Assembly (NCBI GenBank): GCA_965212015.1 | Contig: OZ243037.1 | Location: forward strand, 96,001 to 160,000 | DNA from: Cenarchaeum sp. | Lineage (GTDB): Archaea > Thermoproteota > Nitrososphaeria > Nitrososphaerales > Nitrosopumilaceae | Direction of reading: 5' to 3' | Length of the DNA stretch: 64,000 nt | In this document: positions 8,328-18,501 of the stretch, piece by piece | Numbering within the stretch: the stretch's first letter is position 1 | How the letters are laid out: every line of letters starts with the position of its first letter | The notes under the pieces: model-generated | The model's database searches: none | Told to the model about the DNA's origin: nothing | What the model saw: the letters and a program-made list of their open reading frames with translations, nothing else | Position numbers and translations under genes: made by a program

Positions 8328-11080
8328 ATGTCCGGAACGGCGTTATCCAAATCCCCCCCCTAGCTTTAAAATATACGCCGTATGCGGCCCTTGCAATAGT
8401 AATGCTGGCGCTCTCTACCGGTACAGCATATGCCGCAGAATCCGATGATTCCTCGCCCGCAATACTAAACACGATTCAAAACTTTGAGATTTCCGCCGGC
8501 GAGACGGCAAAGCTGTACCTTCACACAAAGTTTACAGATGATGGCGCAATGACGTATGCGGTAGATGCGGCAGACTCTGCAATAGTGTCCGTACGGACAG
8601 ACGGGAGCCGGGTTGCAATGACCGGGCTTGCGGCAGGCACCACGCAGGTTACCGCATGCGCCAGCGACGGCACAAACGATGCAACGTGCCAGACGTTCCG
8701 GGTAACCGTACAGCCATCTGCCACGCCGGTAAAAATATCAAACACGATTCAAAACTTTGAGATTTTAAATGGTGAGACGGCAAAGCTGTACCTTCACACA
8801 AAGTTTTCGGGCCAGGGAGATCTGGAATATACGGCTGATGCGGCAGACTCTACAATAGTGTCCATACAGACAGACAAGGGCAGGGTTGCAATGACCGGGC
8901 TTGCGGCAGGCTCTACGCAGGTTACCGCATGCGCCAGCGACGGCACGGGCGAGCCGCTCTGCCAGAGATACACAGTTACAGTCGCCGCAGGGTCGGTTCT
9001 GCTGCCGCCGCCGGATCTCACGGCAGAGGCCACGGGAATGCTGACGGCAATAGATATCGGCACTGCACGGATTGAGGGCGGTAACTCTAGAATAACCAGC
9101 GACGCGCCGGATTCGTTCCCGCTGGGCGATACCGTCGTGACGTGGAGTGCAGACGGCCACGGGGATGTGGCCCAGACTGTCACCATACGGGATACGACCC
9201 CGCCTAAATTTGGCGTGCTGCGCGACATAAAGGTCGGAGTGTCGCCTGAGCGGCCGCTATTGTTCTATAACACTCCGGATGCAAGTGATCTTGCAGACGA
9301 CTCTGTAGACGTATCGTGTATACCTGAGCGCGAGACGGCAGTCACGCTTGGCACCGTCAGCGTAACATGTACTGCAACTGACGATTCCGGCAATTCCAGC
9401 ACGGGATCCTTTGACGTTACTATGGTTCCGTTTGATGACGGCCTCACGCCAGACACCATACAGTATGATCTTAATGCGCCAATCATTACGGCCCCCGATG
9501 ACATTACCGCAGAGGCGACAGGCGTACTGACTGCGGTGGATATCGGCACTGCCACAGCAAAGGACGCAGACGGCGACTTTCCCACGGTAAGCAGTAATGC
9601 GCCGGACTCTTATCCGCTGGGGGACACGGTAGTGACGTGGACTGCCGTTAATAGTGGCGGCTATGTCGCGCGCGCACACCAGAGTATTACCGTACAGGAC
9701 ACCACGCCGCCGTCATTTGATGTCGTACCGGAGGATGTCAAGCTTGAATCGCAAAACGGCACCGCGTCGCTTTACTATGACACTCCGACTGTGACTGATC
9801 TGGTAGATGGTCGTCCCGGCGTGACATGCGAGCCTGCAGCAGGCACGCAGTTGCCTGCCGGCACCACCAAAATCACCTGCACTGCCACGGATAATGCGGG
9901 CAATTCCGGCATGGTGTCGTTTGATGCCACGGTAATTACCGGCGACGACTCTGCCGCACCGCCGACCAAAGTCGCGTATAACCCCATGAGTATGATAACT
10001 GCGACCATTCCATTTCAAAATAGTTATCTTGGATCCTCTATTGACATAGACGGGAACACCATGGTTGTAGGCGCGTATGGCCACATCCATGATAGTCCGG
10101 AGGACGGTGCAGCATATGTGTTTACACGAACAGCTGACGGCTGGAGTGAGCCCGTCAAGCTTACTGCCGATGAAGGGTTTTGGTTTGGAAGAACCGTGGC
10201 CATACATGGTGATACAATAGTGGCCGGTACCAGAAACAGCGATGGCGGTGCCGTACACGTGTTTACGCGCGACAACAATGTCTGGGTGCAGTCCGATACG
10301 CTGCTAATCAACGGTACGGCCAGTGTTTATTTCGGCAGAAGCGTTGACATTTACGAGGATACAATCGTGGTTGGTGCGGACGTCATACATGCAAGTGACA
10401 CCAGTCCCGGATCGGCATACATATTTACACGGACAGCCGACGGCTGGAGTGAATCCCAAAAGATTGCTGCAAATGACGGCAGTAGAGGCGATCATTTTGG
10501 CTGGGATGTGGCCATTGATCAGAAAACCATTATCGTGGGCTCGTTTAAAAATGCCCTTTATGTCTTTGATGTGAACGACGGTGTGTGGAGCCAGACCCAA
10601 AAGATCACATCTGTAGATAGTGAACATCGAGATTATTTTGGCAAAAGTGCAGCCATACACAATGATACAATGGTTGTGGGTGCTGCCGGTGATGATGATA
10701 TGGGCTCTAACTCTGGCTCTGCATATGTTTTTACCAGAAATGATGCCACAAACAGCTGGGAGGAGGTCTCAAAGCTGCAGCCAGATGACGGCGCGCGTCT
10801 TGACTATTTTGGCAACAGCGTTTCAGTATATGACGACACTGTAATAGCGGGCTCGGTTTTTCACGGTGCGGGTGCGGCCTATGTCTTTAAGAACGGCGAC
10901 AATGCATGGGAGTTTGACTCCAAGCTGACTGTGGATGACGGCAGAAAACACAACTGGTTCGGTTACGAGGTCCGGGCGTATCAAGACACGCTCCTTGTGG
11001 GCTCGATACTGACGGACGGTCAGCTCGAAGGCGAGCTAGTATACAACTCTGGGGCAGTATACGAGTACAATCCGCCATAG
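8328..11080 (+). CDS. Secreted surface protein: 2 Ig-like repeats, HYR domains and FG-GAP beta-propeller; likely start ATG 8328 is out of frame at a C8 tract
   Basis: Signal-peptide-like AALAIVMLALSTGTAYA; HYR-like DTTPP / FPLGDTVVTW / TCTATD; FG-GAP blades (FG.SV.I..DT.VVGA...GSAYVF). The ORF-track GTG at 8306 directly abuts the TATA box. Confidence 0.8.
8353..8360 (+). repeat. C8 homopolymer in the 5' coding region (candidate slipped-strand switch)
   Basis: atcccccccctag. The ATG 8328 frame stops at TAG 8361-8363; one more C (or two fewer) joins it to the long ORF. Confidence 0.7.
8468..8985 (+). repeat. Tandem intragenic duplication, 273-bp (91-aa) period
   Basis: aacacgattcaaaactttgagattt at 8468 and 8741; NTIQNFEI..GETAKLYLHTKF..TQVTACASDGT occurs twice. 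Confidence 0.9.
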
Positions 11081-11463
11081 CATTGGAGCGACTGAACCGT
11101 ATCTGCGTTAGCTTGGCAAAAGCCAGGTTCGGTATCGGGACGTTCCTGCGGATCAGGCAACGCAGTCCCGGCGCAGGCTGCGCACATGGACGCACTGCTC
11201 GTGGGATATGGCCATCTCGTCGCAGCCGATCCTGCGGTCAGTCATTGCCGCGCCGGAATCCCTGACTATTACGATCGGAGTGGACTCTGAGCTCTCGCCC
11301 ATCTTTAGGTTTGCAATTGTGGCCAGGCTGTCAGCTGTCGCCTGAAAGGTCACCTTTAGAGGCCGTCCATTCAGGTCGGTTTTTGCGCGCATGTCTGCCA
11401 CCGGTTCTAGTCCGGCGCACGCTATTGCCACGCCGGTCGTTCCGACCCTTGCAGGCATGAGCC
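10424..11463 (+). repeat. Long direct repeat copy A (surface-gene 3' end plus cofE 3' end)
   Basis: Matches 15082-16120. Stop codons at 11080/15737 and 11153/15810 are both offset by 4657 bp. Confidence 0.93.
11153..11463 (-). pseudogene. cofE: 3' fragment of cofE (F420:glutamate ligase), fused to a transposase fragment
   Basis: LMPARVGTTGVAIACAG...SLRRDCVA is nearly identical to the C-terminus of the full gene at 15810-16592. Confidence 0.9.
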
Positions 11464-11703
11464 AGTTTTGCACCGATTGGTACGATACGACGCAATCGCG
11501 CGCAGTATCTGCCACACTGCGTCCGTTTATTTTTATCATGCAGATGGCGTGCAGTCTCTCTCCTACCGGTGTGCGTTTGTTTTGCTTGTAGGTTTGGAGG
11601 AGTTTTTTTATTTTTTGCGTCCATGGCACGTATGAATGACTAGTGATCAAAAAAGAGCTTGGTTAAAAGTTATTGATCTTCAAAAAACTTATGCGTTTGG
11701 CTA
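11464..11703 (-). mobile_element. IS630-family remnant (left end plus N-terminal HTH of transposase)
   Basis: ERLHAICMIKINGRSVADTARDCVVSYQSVQNW resembles an IS630/Tc1 HTH. The element end abuts TA at 11704-11705, where intact repeat copies read cCTAGtatgaaaaag; CTAG is the classical IS630 target. Confidence 0.65.
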
Positions 11704-11870
11704 TAGTATGAAAAAGTCTTTCAAAACCGACCCGGATTGACGCCTAGGCTCTGTCGGCAATGTCACAAAAAACCACGAATCGGAGTCAAAAGTTGACAAA
11801 TTGAGGATCTTGTGGGCAGATGCTGGCCCGTCTGTAAAGCCCCGAATCAAAGCCAAAAGTTGACAAATTA
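11704..11870 (+). repeat. Partial copy of the island repeat unit upstream of the deaminase
   Basis: tagtatgaaaaagtctt..gattgacgcctaggctctg..cgaatcggagtcaaaagttgacaaatt matches copies near 13956, 14254 and 14606. Confidence 0.85.
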
Positions 11871-12085
11871 AAAGAGAGTGCCCTCGGCGGGAGTCTGCAG
11901 CTCAAAGTCAACGCCCTGTATTTCTTGCAAATTTTGATCACTCATACGCAACCATACACATGATGTGCTTTGATATGTGTTGCGGCAGGTTATCGTATAA
12001 TGACCTGCCTCTTATATTGAATCAGCGATCAGGATCAACTTTATAATTGTGGCAAAGAACAAATCATTATACGGAATAGATCAAT

Positions 12086-13552
12086 ATGGGTGAGAAAACA
12101 AAGCCTCCAGAGCTGTTCATCGGGCTGACTGGGGCAGTCGGCACTGATTTGGATGAGGTCTCTAAAATGTTTGAGAACAAGCTACAGACCTTGGGATACA
12201 GAACAGAGATTATCGTATTGAGCAGATTGCTGGAGCAGGTAATAGGACTGGTAAATAAATATGACAAGAAGGACGAGTATGCCAGGGTCATGGCGCTTAT
12301 GGATGCCGGGGATGAATTCAGAAGAAAGGCCAAAACCCGTGATGCACTGGTTCGGCTTGCCATATTGTACATGATCGAGATCCGAGCCAGAGTGAACGGC
12401 TCTGATTCTGACCATGGGCAGGCATACATATTCAAGTCATTAAAACAGGTAGATGAGGTAAAAAAACTGCGCGAAGTATATGGCAAGAATTTCTGGCTTG
12501 CCTCCGTATATTCCCCACGTAATATTCGATTAAATTACTTGGAAGGTAAAATTGGCAAAGGCGGTTCGGATGTAAAAGAATTGATGAAACGCGACGAATA
12601 TGACGGTACAAATCCTTTGGGTCAGAACGTCCGTGATACGTTCTCAGAGGCAGATGTCTTTCTCAACATGAATCTTAATCTGCGTGGATCAATTGACAAG
12701 TTTATCGAGCTCTTGTTTGAAAACACACTCAATACACCATCCATAGAGGAATCCGGAATGATGCATGCTTTTACTGTCTCTATGGCATCCTCCTCGCTAT
12801 CGCGGCAGGTGGGAGCCTCGATTCTCACAAAATCAGGTGATCTTATATCGACGGGAATCAACGAGGTTCCAAAGGCAGGCGGCGGCCATTATCTGGCCGG
12901 AGACAGAAACGATGCAAGAGAGTGGCAGATTGGCCATGATTCCAACACACGCAAAAAGACAGAGGCACTTGGCGAATTCTTGTCCAATCTGGATATGGAA
13001 GGTTGGCTGGCAGATGGCGTTCAAAAATCAGACATGACGGCAAAAGCTCTGGAATCCGAGAAAATCAAAAGATCGGCATTTCTCAACCTGATAGAATATG
13101 GCAGAGAGGTGCACGCAGAAATGTCGGCTCTGATGAGCGCGATTCGTATTGGAGTATCCGTTACAGGTTGCACAATGTATTGTACTACTTTTCCGTGCCA
13201 TATCTGTGCCAAGCACATAATTGCAAGCGGAATATCCAGACTGGTCTATATCGAGCCCTATCCCAAGAGTCTGGCAGAAGAGCTGTATGGTGACTCGATT
13301 GCAGTGGATGAGGCGGTAACGGAGAATCAGATTCAATTCGAGCCGTTCATCGGCGTATCTCCTAGGCGGCATATGGAATTGTTTAAGATGTTAAAGAGAA
13401 AGGACGAGCAGGGCAATATTATACCATGGAATCCAACCGGCGCTACTCTTAGATATGATGAATTAATCCTGCCTTATAAGAAGGAACAACAGGAGGCCAA
13501 TAAATTAGAGAAAATATTGATCGATCAGGGATTAAAATTTGAACAAAATTGA
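12086..13552 (+). CDS. Anti-phage dCTP/dCMP deaminase (N-terminal P-loop kinase-like domain plus Zn deaminase; AvcD-like)
   Basis: FIGLTGAVGT, SLK..EVKKLREVYG, GQNVRDTF..ADVF, SLSRQVGA, GINEVPKAGGG, VHAEMSA, TTFPCHICAKHII, YIEPYPKS; visibly lower GC than the core genes. Confidence 0.9.
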   Translation: MGEKTKPPELFIGLTGAVGTDLDEVSKMFENKLQTLGYRTEIIVLSRLLEQVIGLVNKYDKKDEYARVMALMDAGDEFRRKAKTRDALVRLAILYMIEIRARVNGSDSDHGQAYIFKSLKQVDEVKKLREVYGKNFWLASVYSPRNIRLNYLEGKIGKGGSDVKELMKRDEYDGTNPLGQNVRDTFSEADVFLNMNLNLRGSIDKFIELLFENTLNTPSIEESGMMHAFTVSMASSSLSRQVGASILTKSGDLISTGINEVPKAGGGHYLAGDRNDAREWQIGHDSNTRKKTEALGEFLSNLDMEGWLADGVQKSDMTAKALESEKIKRSAFLNLIEYGREVHAEMSALMSAIRIGVSVTGCTMYCTTFPCHICAKHIIASGISRLVYIEPYPKSLAEELYGDSIAVDEAVTENQIQFEPFIGVSPRRHMELFKMLKRKDEQGNIIPWNPTGATLRYDELILPYKKEQQEANKLEKILIDQGLKFEQN

Positions 13553-13590
13553 CCCGATATTCTTATATGGTACCGGTTGCTGTATATGGT

Positions 13591-13701
13591 ATGCAAGATT
13601 TACCAAAAGGCTGGATGGCAAAAGTGTTCAAAGAGGCTGCCGAGGCAGTGAAAAAAATACCAAAAGAAGAGCGTGAATATTATGAGCAGCATTCTAGCTA
13701 G
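13591..13701 (+). CDS. Microprotein copy 1 (36 aa, MQDLPKGWMAKVFKEAAEAVKKIPKEEREYYEQHSS)
   Basis: Translated by hand. TTATAT at 13563-13568 upstream; paralogue at 14706 differs by many synonymous changes. Confidence 0.7.
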   Translation: MQDLPKGWMAKVFKEAAEAVKKIPKEEREYYEQHSS

Positions 13702-13859
13702 AATATAGACAGGTTTATGAATTCTGGCTGGATCGAGTTAAAGGTATCCAATAATTCTGTTTTACAGGTCACTTTGTCGTGTCTGAGTGAGGCCCAAAAT
13801 TGGCAAATATGTTGGGATCTCAAGAGGCTGGCAAATTAGGGAATCGTAGACAGGGGTAG

Positions 13860-14665
13860 TGCAGTCTGTAAAGCCCCGAACCGGAGCCAAAAGTTGGCAA
13901 AGTTGACAAATTGGGAGAGGTTGCAAGGCCATATGGTTCAGAAATACATCCAGTCCTAGTATGAAAAAGTCTTCCAAAATAGAAGACAACCGGGTTCGTG
14001 CCTAGATTGACGCCTAGGCTCTGCCGGTAACGCCAAAAACCCCGAATTGGAGCCAAAAGTTGGCAAAGTTGACAAAGTTGGCAAAGTTGGCAAATTGGGG
14101 AATGGCAGTGGGCAGGTGTGGGGCCGTCTGTAAAGCCCGAATTGGAGCCAAAAGTTGACAAAGTTGGCAAAGTTGGCAAAGTTGGCAAAGTTGGCAAAGT
14201 TGGCAAATCAGGGGTGGTTGCAAGGCCATATGGTTCAGAAATACATCCAGTCCTAGTATGAAAAAGTCTTCCAAAACCGACCCAGATTGACGCCTAGACT
14301 CTGCCGGCAATGTTATCAAAAACCCCGAACCGGAGCCAAAAGTTCACAAAGTTCACAAATTGGGGGACACTGCCTAAAAAGTTGGCAAAGTTGGCAAATC
14401 AGGGATGATGCCTAGAAAGTTGGCAAATTCAGGAAAAACGCCCAGGCGGGGATCTGGGAGCAAAGTAGACAAAGTAGACAGAGTAGACAAGTTGGGGATG
14501 CCTAGAAAGTTGGCAAATTCAGGAAAAACGCCCAGGCGGGGATCTGAACGCAAAGTAGACAAATCAGGAAGCTGCAAGACCATATGGTCCAGAAATACAT
14601 CTGTCTAGTATGAAAGAATCTTCCAAAATACACCTAGATTGACGCCTAGGTTCTACCGGCAAAGT
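13860..14665 (+). repeat. Nested repeat field: 9-bp tandem units (AAAGTTG[G/A]C and variants) inside 28-bp, 50-bp and ~300-bp repeated units
   Basis: Six tandem 9-mers at 14151-14204 and four near 14056-14091; identical 50-mers at 14407-14456 and 14497-14546; gcaaggccatatggttcagaaatacatccagtcctagtatgaaaaagtcttccaaaa near 13923 and 14220, degenerate copy near 14574. Confidence 0.92.
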
Positions 14666-14705
14666 CGGTGATATTGTTATATGGTACCGGCTTGCCATAT
14701 ATGGT

Positions 14706-14825
14706 ATGCAAGACTTACCAAAAGGCTGGATGGCAAAAGTACTCAAAGAAACTGTGGAGGAAGTGAAAAAAATGCCAAAAGAAGAGCGCGAATACTATGA
14801 ACAATCATCCAACTATAATGACTAG
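14706..14825 (+). CDS. Microprotein copy 2 (39 aa, MQDLPKGWMAKVLKETVEEVKKMPKEEREYYEQSSNYND)
   Basis: Translated by hand. TTATAT at 14677-14682 upstream; no indels relative to copy 1. Confidence 0.7.
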   Translation: MQDLPKGWMAKVLKETVEEVKKMPKEEREYYEQSSNYND

Positions 14826-15022
14826 TGGTTTTTAAATTCTGGCAGGATCAAGTTAAAGATATCTAGTAGCTCGGTTTCTCAGATCGCTTTGCCGTGTCTG
14901 AGTAAGGCCCAAAATTGGCAGATATGTTGGGATCTCAAGAGGCTGGCAAATTAGAGAATTATGGGCAGGCGTAGTATAATCTGTAAACCCGGAATTGGAG
15001 CCAAAAGTTGACAAATCAGGGG

Positions 15023-15737
15023 GTGGTTGTAGGCGTATATGGAAATGCTCATGATATTCCCGAGGATGGCGCAGTATACGTGTTTACACGAACTATCGAC
15101 GGTTGGAGCGAATCCCAAAAAATTGTTGCAAATGACGGCAGCAGAGGCGATCATTTTGGCTGGGATGTGGCCATTGATCAGAAAACCATTATCGTGGGCT
15201 CGTTTAAAAATGCCCTTTATGTATTTGATGTGAACGACCGTGTGGAGCCAGATCCAAAAGATTACATCTGTAGATAGTGCACATCGCGACTATTTTGGCA
15301 AAGATGCGGACATACACAACAATACAATAATTGTAGGTGCGATCGTGGACGATGATGGAGGTACCAATTCCGGCTCTGCATATGTTTTTACCAAGAACGG
15401 TGCCACAAACAGCTGGGAGGAGGTCTCAAAGCTGCAGCCAGATGACGGCGGGCGCCTTGACTATTTTGGCAACAGCGTTTCAGTATATGACGACACTGTA
15501 ATAGTGGGCTCGATTTTTCACGATGCGGGTGCGGCCTATGTCTTTAAGAACGGCGACAATGCATGGGAGTTTGACTCCAAGCTGACTGTGGATGACGGCA
15601 GAAAACACAACTGGTTCGGTTACGAGGTCCGGGCGTATCAAGACACGCTCCTTGTGGGCTCGATACTGACGGACGGTCAGCTCGAAGGCGAGCTAGTACA
15701 CAACTCTGGGGCCGTATACGAGTACAATCCGCCATAG
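15023..15737 (+). pseudogene. Silent, 5'-truncated and frameshifted copy of the FG-GAP propeller of the surface protein
   Basis: ORFs 15008-15277 and 15240-15737 together match the C-terminus of 8328-11080. 2-bp deletion near 15240 (gacggtgtgtggagc to gaccgtgtggagc); no signal peptide. Confidence 0.88.
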
Positions 15738-16120
15738 CATTGGAGTGGCTGAACCGTATCTGCGTTAGCTTGGCAAAAGCCAGGTTCTGTATAGATACGT
15801 TCCTGCGGATCAGGCAGCGCAGTCCCGGCGCAGGCTGCGCACATAGACGCACTGCTCGTGGGATATGGCCATCTCGTCGCAGCCGATCCTGCGGTCAGTC
15901 ATCACTGCGCCAGAGTCCCTGGCTATTACGATCGGAGTGGACTCTGAGCTCTCGCCCATCTTTAGGTTTGCAATTGTGGCCAGGCTGTCAGCTGTTGCCT
16001 GAAAGGTCACCTTTAGGGGCCGTCCATTCAGGTCGGTTTTTGCGCGCATGTCTGCCACCGGTTCTAGTCCGGCGCACGCTATTGCCACGCCGGTCGTTCC
16101 TACCCTTGCGGGCATTAGCC
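15082..16120 (+). repeat. Long direct repeat copy B
   Basis: Matches 10424-11463, with patchy identity. Confidence 0.93.
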
Positions 16121-16877: not shown

Positions 16878-17699
16878 ATGGGCCTGAATCTCTCCACAAG
16901 GCCGCTCAGTCACGAGGAACAAAAATTCTACCTGTATCTGGAGGGTGCAGGAATCAGCTCCTTCAAGGTCTCTGAAATCGACGAGAAGGAATCAGGGCTG
17001 AGCAGGGAGCATCTTTATGTGATAATCGGCAGGCTGGAAAAAAAGGGATGGATAACCGGGGTGGGAAAGGGAGTCTATCTGCGGCTTCCTGCCAGTACGG
17101 CCCTTGATGGGCGCGCATACCTTGAGGATCCCTTCGAGGTCGGCCTAAAGACGTATTCGGGATATCTTGCATTTCAGAGCGCGCTGAGGATACACGGATT
17201 GAGCGAGTACCAGTCGTTTACCGTTTTTGTTGCAACCAAAAACAAGTCAGAGACCCTACCGCTGCTTGATCACTATGAAATAAAGGCCGTAAAAATAGGG
17301 AAAAGGTTCACCGGCTTTGAGGAAAAAGGAAAATACAAGGTTTCAACAATGGCAAAGACGTTCTTTGACTGTTTTTGCCACCCGCAGTATGCGGGAGGCT
17401 ATTCTGAGATACTGAAATCACTGCACAGGACAAAAAACATGGATTGGACAGAGATGGAAAAACATCTAGCTGAGCTTGGCTCGTCTAGTCTGTGCCAAAA
17501 GATCGGCCATATGGTCTCGCTGCTTCAAAAAGAGACGCAATACGAGATTCCGGCGGGGTTTTTAGGATATCTAAAGGGCAGAATAAAAAACAAGACAAGG
17601 CTTGATTTTGCCGCATCCGGAGGGCAATATGTCCGAGACTGGATGGTAATTGACAATATAGGGGAGAGAAAGCTCCTGTCGTGGTGGTATGATGGTTGA
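16878..17699 (+). CDS. Type IV TA antitoxin / transcriptional regulator (AbiEi-like)
   Basis: N-terminal wHTH RLEKKGWI..VGKGVY, YLAFQSALRIHGL, VSTMAKTFFDC..P.YAGG; overlaps the next gene. Confidence 0.85.
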   Translation: MGLNLSTRPLSHEEQKFYLYLEGAGISSFKVSEIDEKESGLSREHLYVIIGRLEKKGWITGVGKGVYLRLPASTALDGRAYLEDPFEVGLKTYSGYLAFQSALRIHGLSEYQSFTVFVATKNKSETLPLLDHYEIKAVKIGKRFTGFEEKGKYKVSTMAKTFFDCFCHPQYAGGYSEILKSLHRTKNMDWTEMEKHLAELGSSSLCQKIGHMVSLLQKETQYEIPAGFLGYLKGRIKNKTRLDFAASGGQYVRDWMVIDNIGERKLLSWWYDG

Positions 17700-18501
17700 A
17701 TTGCGGGAGGCAAGACAGGCAGCTGCAAGAACGGGAATTGGAATACAATATATTCTAAAAGAGGCAAGGGTATTTGATATTTGGAGCAAGATGTGTCCTG
17801 TCATGCTATCCGATGTAATATTGACAAATGCAAAAACAATATGCAAGGGCGGAACTTCATTGAACAAGATATATCTTGGTAAAATACAATGATTTTCAGA
17901 AGACATTGATTTTGATATATTTTTCAAAGATGATCGATCAAAGGATGAAAAGATCGATTTCATTAAAAATAAGATCATCGCACCTCTAAACAATTCCTAT
18001 GAAATACCAAAGGAATTCAAAAGAAGAAACACCATTCATTTTATGTGCAAGTTTAAAAATGAAATCAATATGGATGATAGCGTGTCTCTTGAATTCAAAA
18101 TTGGGGAAAAAATGACAGGTAGCAGTATAGTTACTAACGCAAGCAGTGCGATACTTCCATTAACCGTAGACAGAGTTCCTGCATATTCATTTCATACACT
18201 ACTTGCCCAAAAACTAAAGGCATTATATGAGCGAGATGAGGGAAAAGATATCTATGACATCTATGTTGGCCTTAATGCCACGAGGGAAATAAGCACGATA
18301 ATTGAGATTTTAAAAGACGTCCTAGCCTCGGCGAATATACGATATGACGATTTTAAAAAAGGAATTACAGAAAAACTTGAAGATGAGAAAAAAATGAAAA
18401 GCCTGCACGGTTCGACCAACCCGTATATTCCAAAGAATCTCAGGATAAATTGGGACATTGCTGCAAAAGGGATTTTAGACAAGATTGGGCCACATCTCTA
18501 G
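17692..18501 (+). pseudogene. AbiEii-family nucleotidyltransferase toxin interrupted by in-frame TGA (17890-17892)
   Basis: One frame reads KGGTSLNKIY..Q*FSEDIDF..LAQKLKALYERDEGKDIYD; ORFs 17689 and 18043 are in the same frame. Confidence 0.88.

Follow-up and report, generated by a model that had tools for sequence, protein, structure and literature searches.

A family of small-protein genes behind anti-phage dCTP deaminases is represented twice in a 64,000-nt stretch of a Cenarchaeum sp. genome (contig OZ243037.1, positions 96,001 to 160,000; hereafter the window). The two copies, c1 and c2, are very small open reading frames (micro-ORFs) which lie downstream of a deaminase gene of the AvcD type and very probably are real protein-coding genes. 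Judged from sequence, the family is an undescribed and unnamed one, a specific functional link between micro-ORF and deaminase is quite likely, and the family is probably the dedicated partner of the AvcD-type deaminase in Nitrosopumilaceae. From the pattern of gene decay and gene dosage, and by analogy with a bacterial system, we propose with a probability of roughly 0.45 that the small protein may be a labile inhibitor, or antitoxin, of the deaminase.

The genes, promoters and repeat units concerned are, by window position:

12086–13552, + strand: anti-phage dCTP deaminase gene (AvcD type), 488 aa, identified by NF041025, PADLOC, Pfam and motifs
13555–13900, + strand: repeat unit 1, comprising promoter, micro-ORF and a ~200-nt non-coding tail, from repeat comparison
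13563–13568, + strand: TATA box of c1, TTATAT, 28 nt before the ATG, a distance implying that the transcript is leaderless
13591–13701, + strand: micro-ORF c1, 36 aa, characterized by AlphaFold2 model, substitution rates and alignment
14670–15015, + strand: repeat unit 2, the counterpart of 13555–13900, from repeat comparison
14677–14682, + strand: TATA box of c2, TTATAT, 29 nt before the ATG
14706–14825, + strand: micro-ORF c2, 39 aa, a copy standing alone 1.16 kb downstream of the deaminase, with a T5 tract 4 nt after its stop

A preliminary description of the window, made from its letters alone, had placed both micro-ORFs at these coordinates, with TTATAT 28 and 29 nt 5' of the respective ATG and with c1 starting 39 nt past the last base of the deaminase stop codon, and all of this was borne out. 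The c1 peptide is MQDLPKGWMAKVFKEAAEAVKKIPKEEREYYEQHSS. When c1 and c2 were read codon by codon, the count matched the earlier one exactly, with eight synonymous codons (D3, V12, E15, R28, Y30, E32, Q33, and S35), seven non-synonymous codons (F13L, A16T, A17V, A19E, I23M, H34S, and S36N, from c1 to c2), and no indels. Purifying selection had also been suggested, and the ratio of non-synonymous to synonymous substitution rates (dN/dS) for the pair is indeed low at 0.11 (Nei-Gojobori, first 32 codons; Sd 7.0, Nd 5.0), with 2, 2, and 8 differences at codon positions 1, 2, and 3 over the same codons. Both ORFs were rightly called unannotated, as they are missing from a 15-billion-protein collection even when longer starts are included.

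The likeness of the two copies extends beyond the ORF, over ~345 nt in all (13555–13900 versus 14670–15015), and the non-coding tail is 82% identical over 299 nt compared with 87.5% for the first 96 nt of the ORF. Since the tail is about as similar as the ORF, the c1/c2 pair alone indicates coding only through its substitution pattern. The decisive coding evidence is the more distant copies.

The window is part of a 1.76-Mb single-contig genome with 51% G+C (G000), in which a protein search found four copies and a six-frame profile scan five. Besides c1 and c2, these are:

G000 738161, + strand: micro-ORF copy c3
G000 834008, − strand: micro-ORF copy c4
G000 307191, − strand: divergent fifth copy, from the six-frame profile scan

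Copy c3 belongs to a recent duplicate of the entire 345-nt unit (91% identity), and the unit tail is common to c1, c2, and c3 and is not shared with other genomes. The c4 protein is 58% identical to c1, and the DNA match is confined to bases 49–136 of the 346-nt query, all within the ORF. The dN/dS values are 0.06 between c1 and c3, ~0.09 between c1 and c4 (dN 0.23, dS saturated), and 0.09 between c1 and the homologue in genome G490.

A genome of another genus in the same family (G214) carries a deaminase 72–73% identical to that of the window, and 38 nt behind this gene starts a 40-aa homologue of the micro-ORF, which is present three times in 601-nt tandem units. In a blastn comparison of this locus with the deaminase island of the window (described below), positions 12095–13696 aligned, covering deaminase, spacer, and micro-ORF, and nothing aligned past the end of the micro-ORF. 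The ORF-limited similarity of c4 and the relatives that end at the ORF stop thus indicate that the ORF itself is conserved, the tail of the c1/c2 pair notwithstanding.

Deaminase loci were first gathered from one genome per species, which gave 11 loci, and profile scans of their flanks found relatives of the micro-ORF directly behind the deaminase in most of them. A broader profile of 15 sequences (A6), searched against the whole genomes of 401 Nitrosopumilaceae, matched in 11 genomes from 6 of 27 genera. The total set comprises 50 distinct copies (53 six-frame matches) from 11 Nitrosopumilaceae genomes and one doubtfully labelled metagenome-assembled genome (MAG). The preliminary description had called for a homologue search with gene neighbourhoods; it returned relatives in ten other genomes, mostly behind a deaminase.

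Family members are ~35–55 aa long and share the pattern M-x-x-[LF]-x-K-G-W-[LM]-x-K ... [LMI]-P-x-[WE]-x-[KR]-[DE]. All 41 distinct sequences of the alignment could be aligned with no internal gap; G7 is invariant, P24 occurs in 40 and W8 in 33 of the 41, and position 26 is occupied by W (31 sequences) or E (10 sequences). The mean column entropy at codon positions 1, 2, and 3 is 1.13, 0.80, and 1.28, i.e., lowest at the second and highest at the third position. Together with the ORF-limited similarity and the spacing between TATA box and start, the gap-free alignment and this codon-position variability support the earlier suggestion of a real peptide. One recent tandem copy (in the L040/L097 set) has a TTG start and the substitution P24S.

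TTATA is found 25–31 nt before the start in 47 of the 50 copies, which are kin by descent and therefore not independent events, and in 34 it lies at exactly 28 nt. A random control in the same loci found TTATA at that spacing 294 times in 50,000 (0.6%). The spacing is kept across loci of 36% to 74% G+C, including DNA of 72–74% G+C, and the bases between TATA box and start are wholly different between clades while their distance is preserved. The same holds for all five copies in G000, where TTATA lies 28–29 nt before the ATG even though the sequence in between differs. The three copies without this spacing are N-terminally extended variants in G235, and at least one of them (L049/L082) is a longer ORF starting right after a TTTATA element.

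A spacing of this kind fits leaderless transcripts, which implies that each micro-ORF would be expressed from its own TATA box through a leaderless mRNA. Read-through from the deaminase into the micro-ORF may occur alongside. Among the 50 copies, the start codon is ATG in 33, GTG in 13, and TTG in 4. A run of four or more T within 50 nt after the stop was present in 24 of the 50, an uncontrolled count which was not used as evidence.

The linkage of micro-ORF and deaminase was surveyed by tblastn, with the window deaminase as query against every fetched locus and the complete G000 genome, which yielded 24 full-length homologues, two of them with one internal stop. Twenty of the 24 have a micro-ORF on the same strand within 370 nt downstream, 15 of these within 80 nt. 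The remaining four have one at 2.0, 2.4, 3.3, and 6.1 kb, the 6.1-kb gap holding several further ORFs, so that none of the 24 full-length deaminases was without a downstream micro-ORF. Viewed from the micro-ORF, 47 of 50 copies are located behind a deaminase, in an array behind one, or behind a deaminase remnant.

Co-occurrence follows the same pattern. With the profile NF041025 applied to the 401 Nitrosopumilaceae genomes, the deaminase was found in 11 genomes, the micro-ORF in 11, and both in 10. The genome with only the deaminase (G174) contains an interrupted deaminase followed by a weak relative of the micro-ORF (E 0.004) at the expected place, and the genome with only the micro-ORF is G491. 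As whole-genome searches are blind to position, they answer the worry that the profile came from deaminase flanks. The position behind the deaminase is kept among deaminases that are 40–48% identical, in 6 genera, and everything further downstream differs. The association with the deaminase proposed in the preliminary description is thereby supported by linkage and co-occurrence counts across genomes, beyond what its author could have known.

Intact micro-ORFs also persist where the deaminase is dead. Copy c4 lies 36 nt past a remnant of the deaminase C-terminus (residues 428–487; G000 834044–834229, − strand), and ~1.3 kb upstream of the copy at 307 kb there is an N-terminal remnant (residues 9–100, with two TGA stops; G000 308478–308753, − strand). 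Since ~1.3 kb is the spacing expected, a decayed full-length deaminase gene would account for the distance between this N-terminal remnant and the 307-kb micro-ORF. Both remnants are followed by an intact micro-ORF with a TATA box, and intact micro-ORFs are found as well behind deaminases with one stop codon in G214 and G315. Many loci contain 2–5 tandem micro-ORFs, in which the extra copies have their own promoter.

In three of 11 related loci tested (L084, L086, and L093), one or two diverged copies of the C-terminal third of the deaminase lie behind the resident gene. They start just past the PCxxC motif and are 57–82% identical to the resident C-terminus. The orphan C-terminal fragments are:

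L084, 5418–5720 and 7768–8076
L086, 1665–1841 and 2362–2505
L093, 2336–2611

The fragments have their own micro-ORF within ~150 nt, except L084 5418–5720, for which none was detected. L097 holds just a 45-residue C-terminal remnant, and in the window no deaminase C-terminal fragment was found behind the gene or at c2.

An AlphaFold2 model based on the 41-sequence alignment (mean pLDDT 88) shows a helix at residues 8–22, a break at P24, and a second helix at residues 25–34, so the small protein is predicted to consist of a helix, a proline kink, and a helix. A narrow profile of 7 sequences from the window's own clade (A5) gave 3 matches in 1.84 billion representatives in an exhaustive HMMER search. 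The broader profile, with a search alignment headed by a natural 40-aa member, gave 21 short and 6 longer proteins out of 5.8 billion, none of which is named or has a Pfam domain. Of the six longer ones, five are gene calls extended far upstream, one (P0030) is an N-terminally extended natural variant, and none is a Rosetta-stone fusion with the deaminase. The 15-billion-protein collection lacks c3 as it does c1 and c2; it contains c4, called with 44 aa, and the 40-aa proteins of the G214 copies. No small protein partner of this deaminase was described in the literature searched, which left subscription journals and supplements outside the search.

The model for how such a partner could act comes from bacteria. 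According to two papers, AvcD is a deoxycytidylate deaminase which an adjacent small RNA antitoxin, AvcI, binds and inhibits; AvcI is unstable and is lost upon phage shut-off of host transcription, and over-expression of AvcD impairs genome replication (PMC10511110, PMC12409362). In the archaea, the small protein would be made constitutively and in excess and would keep inactive a deaminase that could harm its own cell. Once a virus has stopped transcription in the host, this short-lived peptide would be lost, and the freed deaminase would deplete dCTP/dCMP, stalling viral DNA replication. A protein would then fill the role of the AvcI small RNA in bacterial AvcID. Intact micro-ORFs that outlive dead deaminases and extra promoter-bearing copies favour an inhibitor over an activator or sensor, without being proof, and the extra copies fit the need for an excess of inhibitor.

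Several observations weigh against this reading. In comparisons with the G214 clade dN/dS is as high as 0.37–0.66, and recent tandem copies in G214 and G489 (L040, L097) differ mostly at non-synonymous sites (e.g., Sd 0/Nd 5 and Sd 0.5/Nd 8.5), an excess that reflects either relaxed or diversifying selection, with numbers too small to decide. A GTG or TTG start, as found in 17 of the 50 copies, is unusual for leaderless mRNAs, and the micro-ORF appears to have its own promoter instead of sharing an autoregulated operon. Three of the 50 copies (c3 at G000 738161, L097:14731, and L098) have no deaminase nearby, and the linkage counts are not independent events, as the genomes are related. Eight bacterial plasmid deaminase loci contained no convincing relative of the micro-ORF (best E 0.11 and 0.24). 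The small protein has no significant match in Pfam, PADLOC, NCBIfam, PHROGs, or ESM Atlas, and Foldseek returned 0 matches in the PDB at E ≤ 10. Distances between micro-ORFs track all four deaminase segments about equally (r 0.63–0.78, highest for the N-terminal domain), and no contact region is indicated by co-variation of the two proteins.

The small protein could instead be a positive partner of the deaminase that senses a viral component, activates the enzyme, or serves as an adaptor. Tight linkage supports such a role equally well as that of an inhibitor, and an arms race with viral proteins could be reflected both in the non-synonymous excess of recent tandem copies and in the arrays of diverged C-terminal fragments with micro-ORFs. 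However, several constitutive copies of an activator would risk self-intoxication, and an activator should decay with its deaminase, yet intact copies and their TATA boxes persist behind dead ones, which makes a positive partner rather unlikely. It is also conceivable that the functional product is an RNA, a non-coding antitoxin like AvcI, and that the ORF is incidental or secondary. The bacterial AvcID inhibitor is a small RNA encoded beside avcD, and the archaeal unit has a strong promoter of its own and occurs in tandem repeats, like type III antitoxin RNAs such as ToxI. Between distant clades, however, the DNA can no longer be aligned while amino-acid pattern, length, and frame are kept in 41 of 41 sequences, and dN/dS is ~0.1. 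In addition, window positions 11500–15200 gave no Rfam match at E ≤ 1, and RNA folding of seven copies gave z-scores from −1.96 to +1.88 with no shared structure, so an RNA product appears decidedly improbable.

A lack of any functional tie, with the micro-ORF being a gene of a repeat-rich mobile cassette (e.g., for its own maintenance) or a hitch-hiking general small protein, would explain why c2 and c3 are solo copies within repeat modules found at two genome loci only, why a 1047-nt direct repeat flanks the entire island, and why three copies have no deaminase nearby. We consider this very unlikely, because the place behind the deaminase is kept at 40–48% deaminase identity, in 6 genera and from 36% to 74% G+C, and whole-genome scans place nearly every copy behind a deaminase or its remnant. 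The similarity of the non-coding tails of c1 and c2 would also be expected if the ORFs were chance open frames in a duplicated non-coding repeat, for which there is hardly any room left, given that c4 and the relatives in other genera conserve promoter and ORF alone.

An inhibitory small protein would have its closest counterpart in AvcID, a type III toxin–antitoxin (TA) phage defence system of Vibrio and other bacteria. The enzyme belongs to the same family (NF041025 above cut-off, PADLOC dCTPase), a small gene, in the archaea predicted to be expressed separately, lies beside the deaminase in both, and the proposed logic of a labile inhibitor that is lost is alike. There the partner is a non-coding RNA, whereas here it is a conserved protein-coding ORF. 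The archaeal partner lies downstream, is often present in multiple copies, and occurs in archaeal hosts; for avcI, the two papers cited above say “adjacent”. The features of an RNA inhibitor were not found, and the micro-ORF is not an AvcI homologue; it may work like AvcI. In bacteria, avcI lies upstream of avcD.

The single-gene dCTP deaminase system of PADLOC and NCBIfam has the same full-length deaminase; it consists of one gene, whereas here a second small gene is present in 10 of the 11 deaminase-positive genomes among the 401. As in type II TA systems, the gene of a small protein is tightly linked to a potentially self-toxic enzyme, and here orphan copies of the small gene outlive the decayed enzyme gene. 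Unlike type II antitoxins, the small protein has no known antitoxin fold or DNA-binding domain, is much shorter than is typical at 36 aa, and is predicted to be expressed from its own leaderless promoter rather than a shared operon, and neutralization of the enzyme is here a proposal.

In the RpnS/RpnL system, a very small and variable protein directly blocks a toxic anti-phage enzyme, which is what we propose here; RpnS is translated within the toxin gene and is a copy of the toxin's C-terminal domain (PMC10327210), whereas the micro-ORF is a gene of its own with no sequence relationship to the deaminase. The C-terminal fragments with micro-ORFs in L084, L086, and L093 are reminiscent of polymorphic-toxin arrays, although the deaminase, an immune enzyme of the cell interior, lacks a delivery domain and the window contains no fragment of this kind. 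Arrays of orphan toxin tips and immunity genes are a feature of polymorphic toxin loci (CdiA-CT/CdiI, Rhs). By extension, archaeal AvcD-type deaminases might be two-gene TA immune modules with a leaderless peptide of ~36 aa as antitoxin, in which the peptide arrays, accompanied in some genomes by diverged C-terminal cassettes, would represent recombinational diversification matching the enzyme to inhibitor variants in an arms race with viruses. This wider proposal is speculative and unlikely.

When the first narrow profile was searched at class level, the matches outside the family Nitrosopumilaceae were all weak and lay within long ORFs, and they were treated as noise. The micro-ORF alignment gave 592 pattern matches in a metagenome scan, 0 of them confirmed, and no match against viral contigs. 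Two contigs labelled as an Acidimicrobiia MAG (L045 and L051) carry the deaminase, the micro-ORF, and archaeal TATA spacing, and the flanks of L045 match sequences repeated many times in genomes of the genus Cenarchaeum. These contigs represent either wrong binning or transferred DNA, and because of the archaeal-type TATA spacing of both and the Cenarchaeum-like flanks of L045, the presence of the family in bacteria is not claimed.

Two archaeal genomes outside the family encode the deaminase, and in one of them a small ORF that overlaps it resembles the micro-ORF at the level of a motif only. In this genome, G685 from another archaeal family, the deaminase stop is overlapped by an ORF of 42 aa (L101 ~1202–1330, − strand), which contains WPDWKKN and was not counted as a member at E 1.7. 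A plasmid of Vibrio nigripulchritudo likewise carries a small ORF overlapping the deaminase stop (L104 2918–3097, + strand; SWPAWKQE, E 0.24). The likeness of both motifs to the family core LPQWKKD is possibly due to chance. Annotated ORFs of 56–61 aa are located immediately upstream of the dCTP deaminase in Photobacterium (L107 866–1036), Escherichia coli (L108 906–1091), and Klebsiella (L109 124–306); all three end in K-x-x-W and are unrelated to the archaeal micro-ORF profile. Their position is what we take to be that of the AvcI RNA gene.

The 488-aa protein of the window is, by profile and motif, a full-length member of the anti-phage dCTP deaminase family of the AvcD type. It scores 437.4 bits against NCBIfam NF041025 “anti-phage dCTP deaminase” (cut-off 400), with residues 9–437 on profile positions 1–434 of 437, and matches PADLOC dCTPase at E 4.4e-147 over residues 4–472 and Pfam dCMP_cyt_deam_1 at E 5e-17. 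The HAE and PCxxC motifs of zinc-dependent deaminases (H343-A344-E345 and P370-C371...C374) are invariant in an alignment of 22 homologues. The PDB holds no structure of the full-length deaminase, and the deaminase domain alone finds matches there. A metagenome scan for the deaminase gave 61 pattern matches, 0 confirmed.

G235, a 3.2-Mb genome of the window's genus, contains at least 12 full-length deaminase paralogues (L081–L092), which is an unusual expansion of one defence gene. In the fetched DNA, micro-ORFs lie behind 11 of the 12 paralogues, for eight of these starting within 65 nt and in 1–5 copies, and the twelfth has one 3.3 kb downstream.

In the window, the deaminase and both micro-ORFs form a 3.6-kb island flanked by the 1047-nt repeat. 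The remaining features of the island and its borders are:

10417–11463, unstranded: left copy of the 1047-nt direct repeat bracketing the island, 93% identical to 15076–16120 by blastn
11156–11650, − strand: truncated F420-0:gamma-glutamyl ligase copy, left by the 1047-nt repeat
13901–14669, + strand: repeat-rich spacer between the two units, with 9-nt arrays AAAGTTGRC and copies of a 60–97 nt module also present at 11703–11800, from repeat families
15076–16120, unstranded: right copy of the 1047-nt direct repeat bracketing the island, from blastn
15240–15737, + strand: truncated FG-GAP protein copy, left by the 1047-nt repeat

The island looks like the recombinational acquisition of a piece carrying flanking DNA of a diverged strain. 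Just beyond it, window positions 16878–18501 encode an AbiEi-like regulator, which scores below the Pfam cut-off, and 152 aa of a fragmentary AbiEii nucleotidyltransferase toxin, as would fit a neighbourhood of defence genes.

Two kinds of short repeats accompany the micro-ORF units. Arrays of the 9-nt unit AAAGTTGRC (also AAAGTTCAC and AAAGTAGAC) occupy window positions 13890–14490 and 11770–11880 as well as G000 738.4–746.8 kb. The motif CCAAAAGTTGRCAAA occurs 16 times in the genome, always on the + strand and confined to those two regions, and its reversed control occurs 0 times. At G000 746 kb, 5.1 tandem repeats of a 112-nt unit (98% identity) adjoin an ORF for an AAA_16/STAND-like ATPase. 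A module of ~60–120 nt (…CCATATGG…TAGTATGAAAAAGTCTTCCAAAA…GATTGACGCCTAG…) is found at 11703–11800, 13917–14039, 14214–14350, and 14568–14665. The first of these sites precedes the deaminase, the next two are in the spacer, and the last lies directly before c2; the module is also found upstream of c3 at 738 kb and has no Rfam match.

Four sequencing runs available as contigs only were compared with the region, which proved fragmented, strain-rich, and repeat-rich. The 12 indels listed, out of 35 in those runs, are all outside both ORFs, and no conclusion was drawn from them. At window positions 13612–13718, the summed contig depth over the micro-ORF/repeat bins was many times that of the deaminase bins in runs X3 and X4 (in X3, 49,979 versus ~1,300, values from contigs only and not quantitative), which suggests that the repeat is present in these samples in far more copies or strains than the deaminase is.

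Because the family is rare, it has a limited reach unless other deaminases are accompanied by functional analogues. To our knowledge, the AvcI small RNA is the only regulator of an anti-phage dCTP deaminase known in bacteria. If the proposed role is correct, the same immune enzyme would be controlled by chemically different inhibitors in different lineages, and gene callers would be missing a functional partner gene. An easily synthesized peptide would then be at hand for testing how the enzyme is held off and released. Nitrosopumilaceae are globally abundant ammonia-oxidising archaea whose antiviral biology is little known, and the micro-ORF and its deaminase would be one of the few candidate defence TA pairs in this family.

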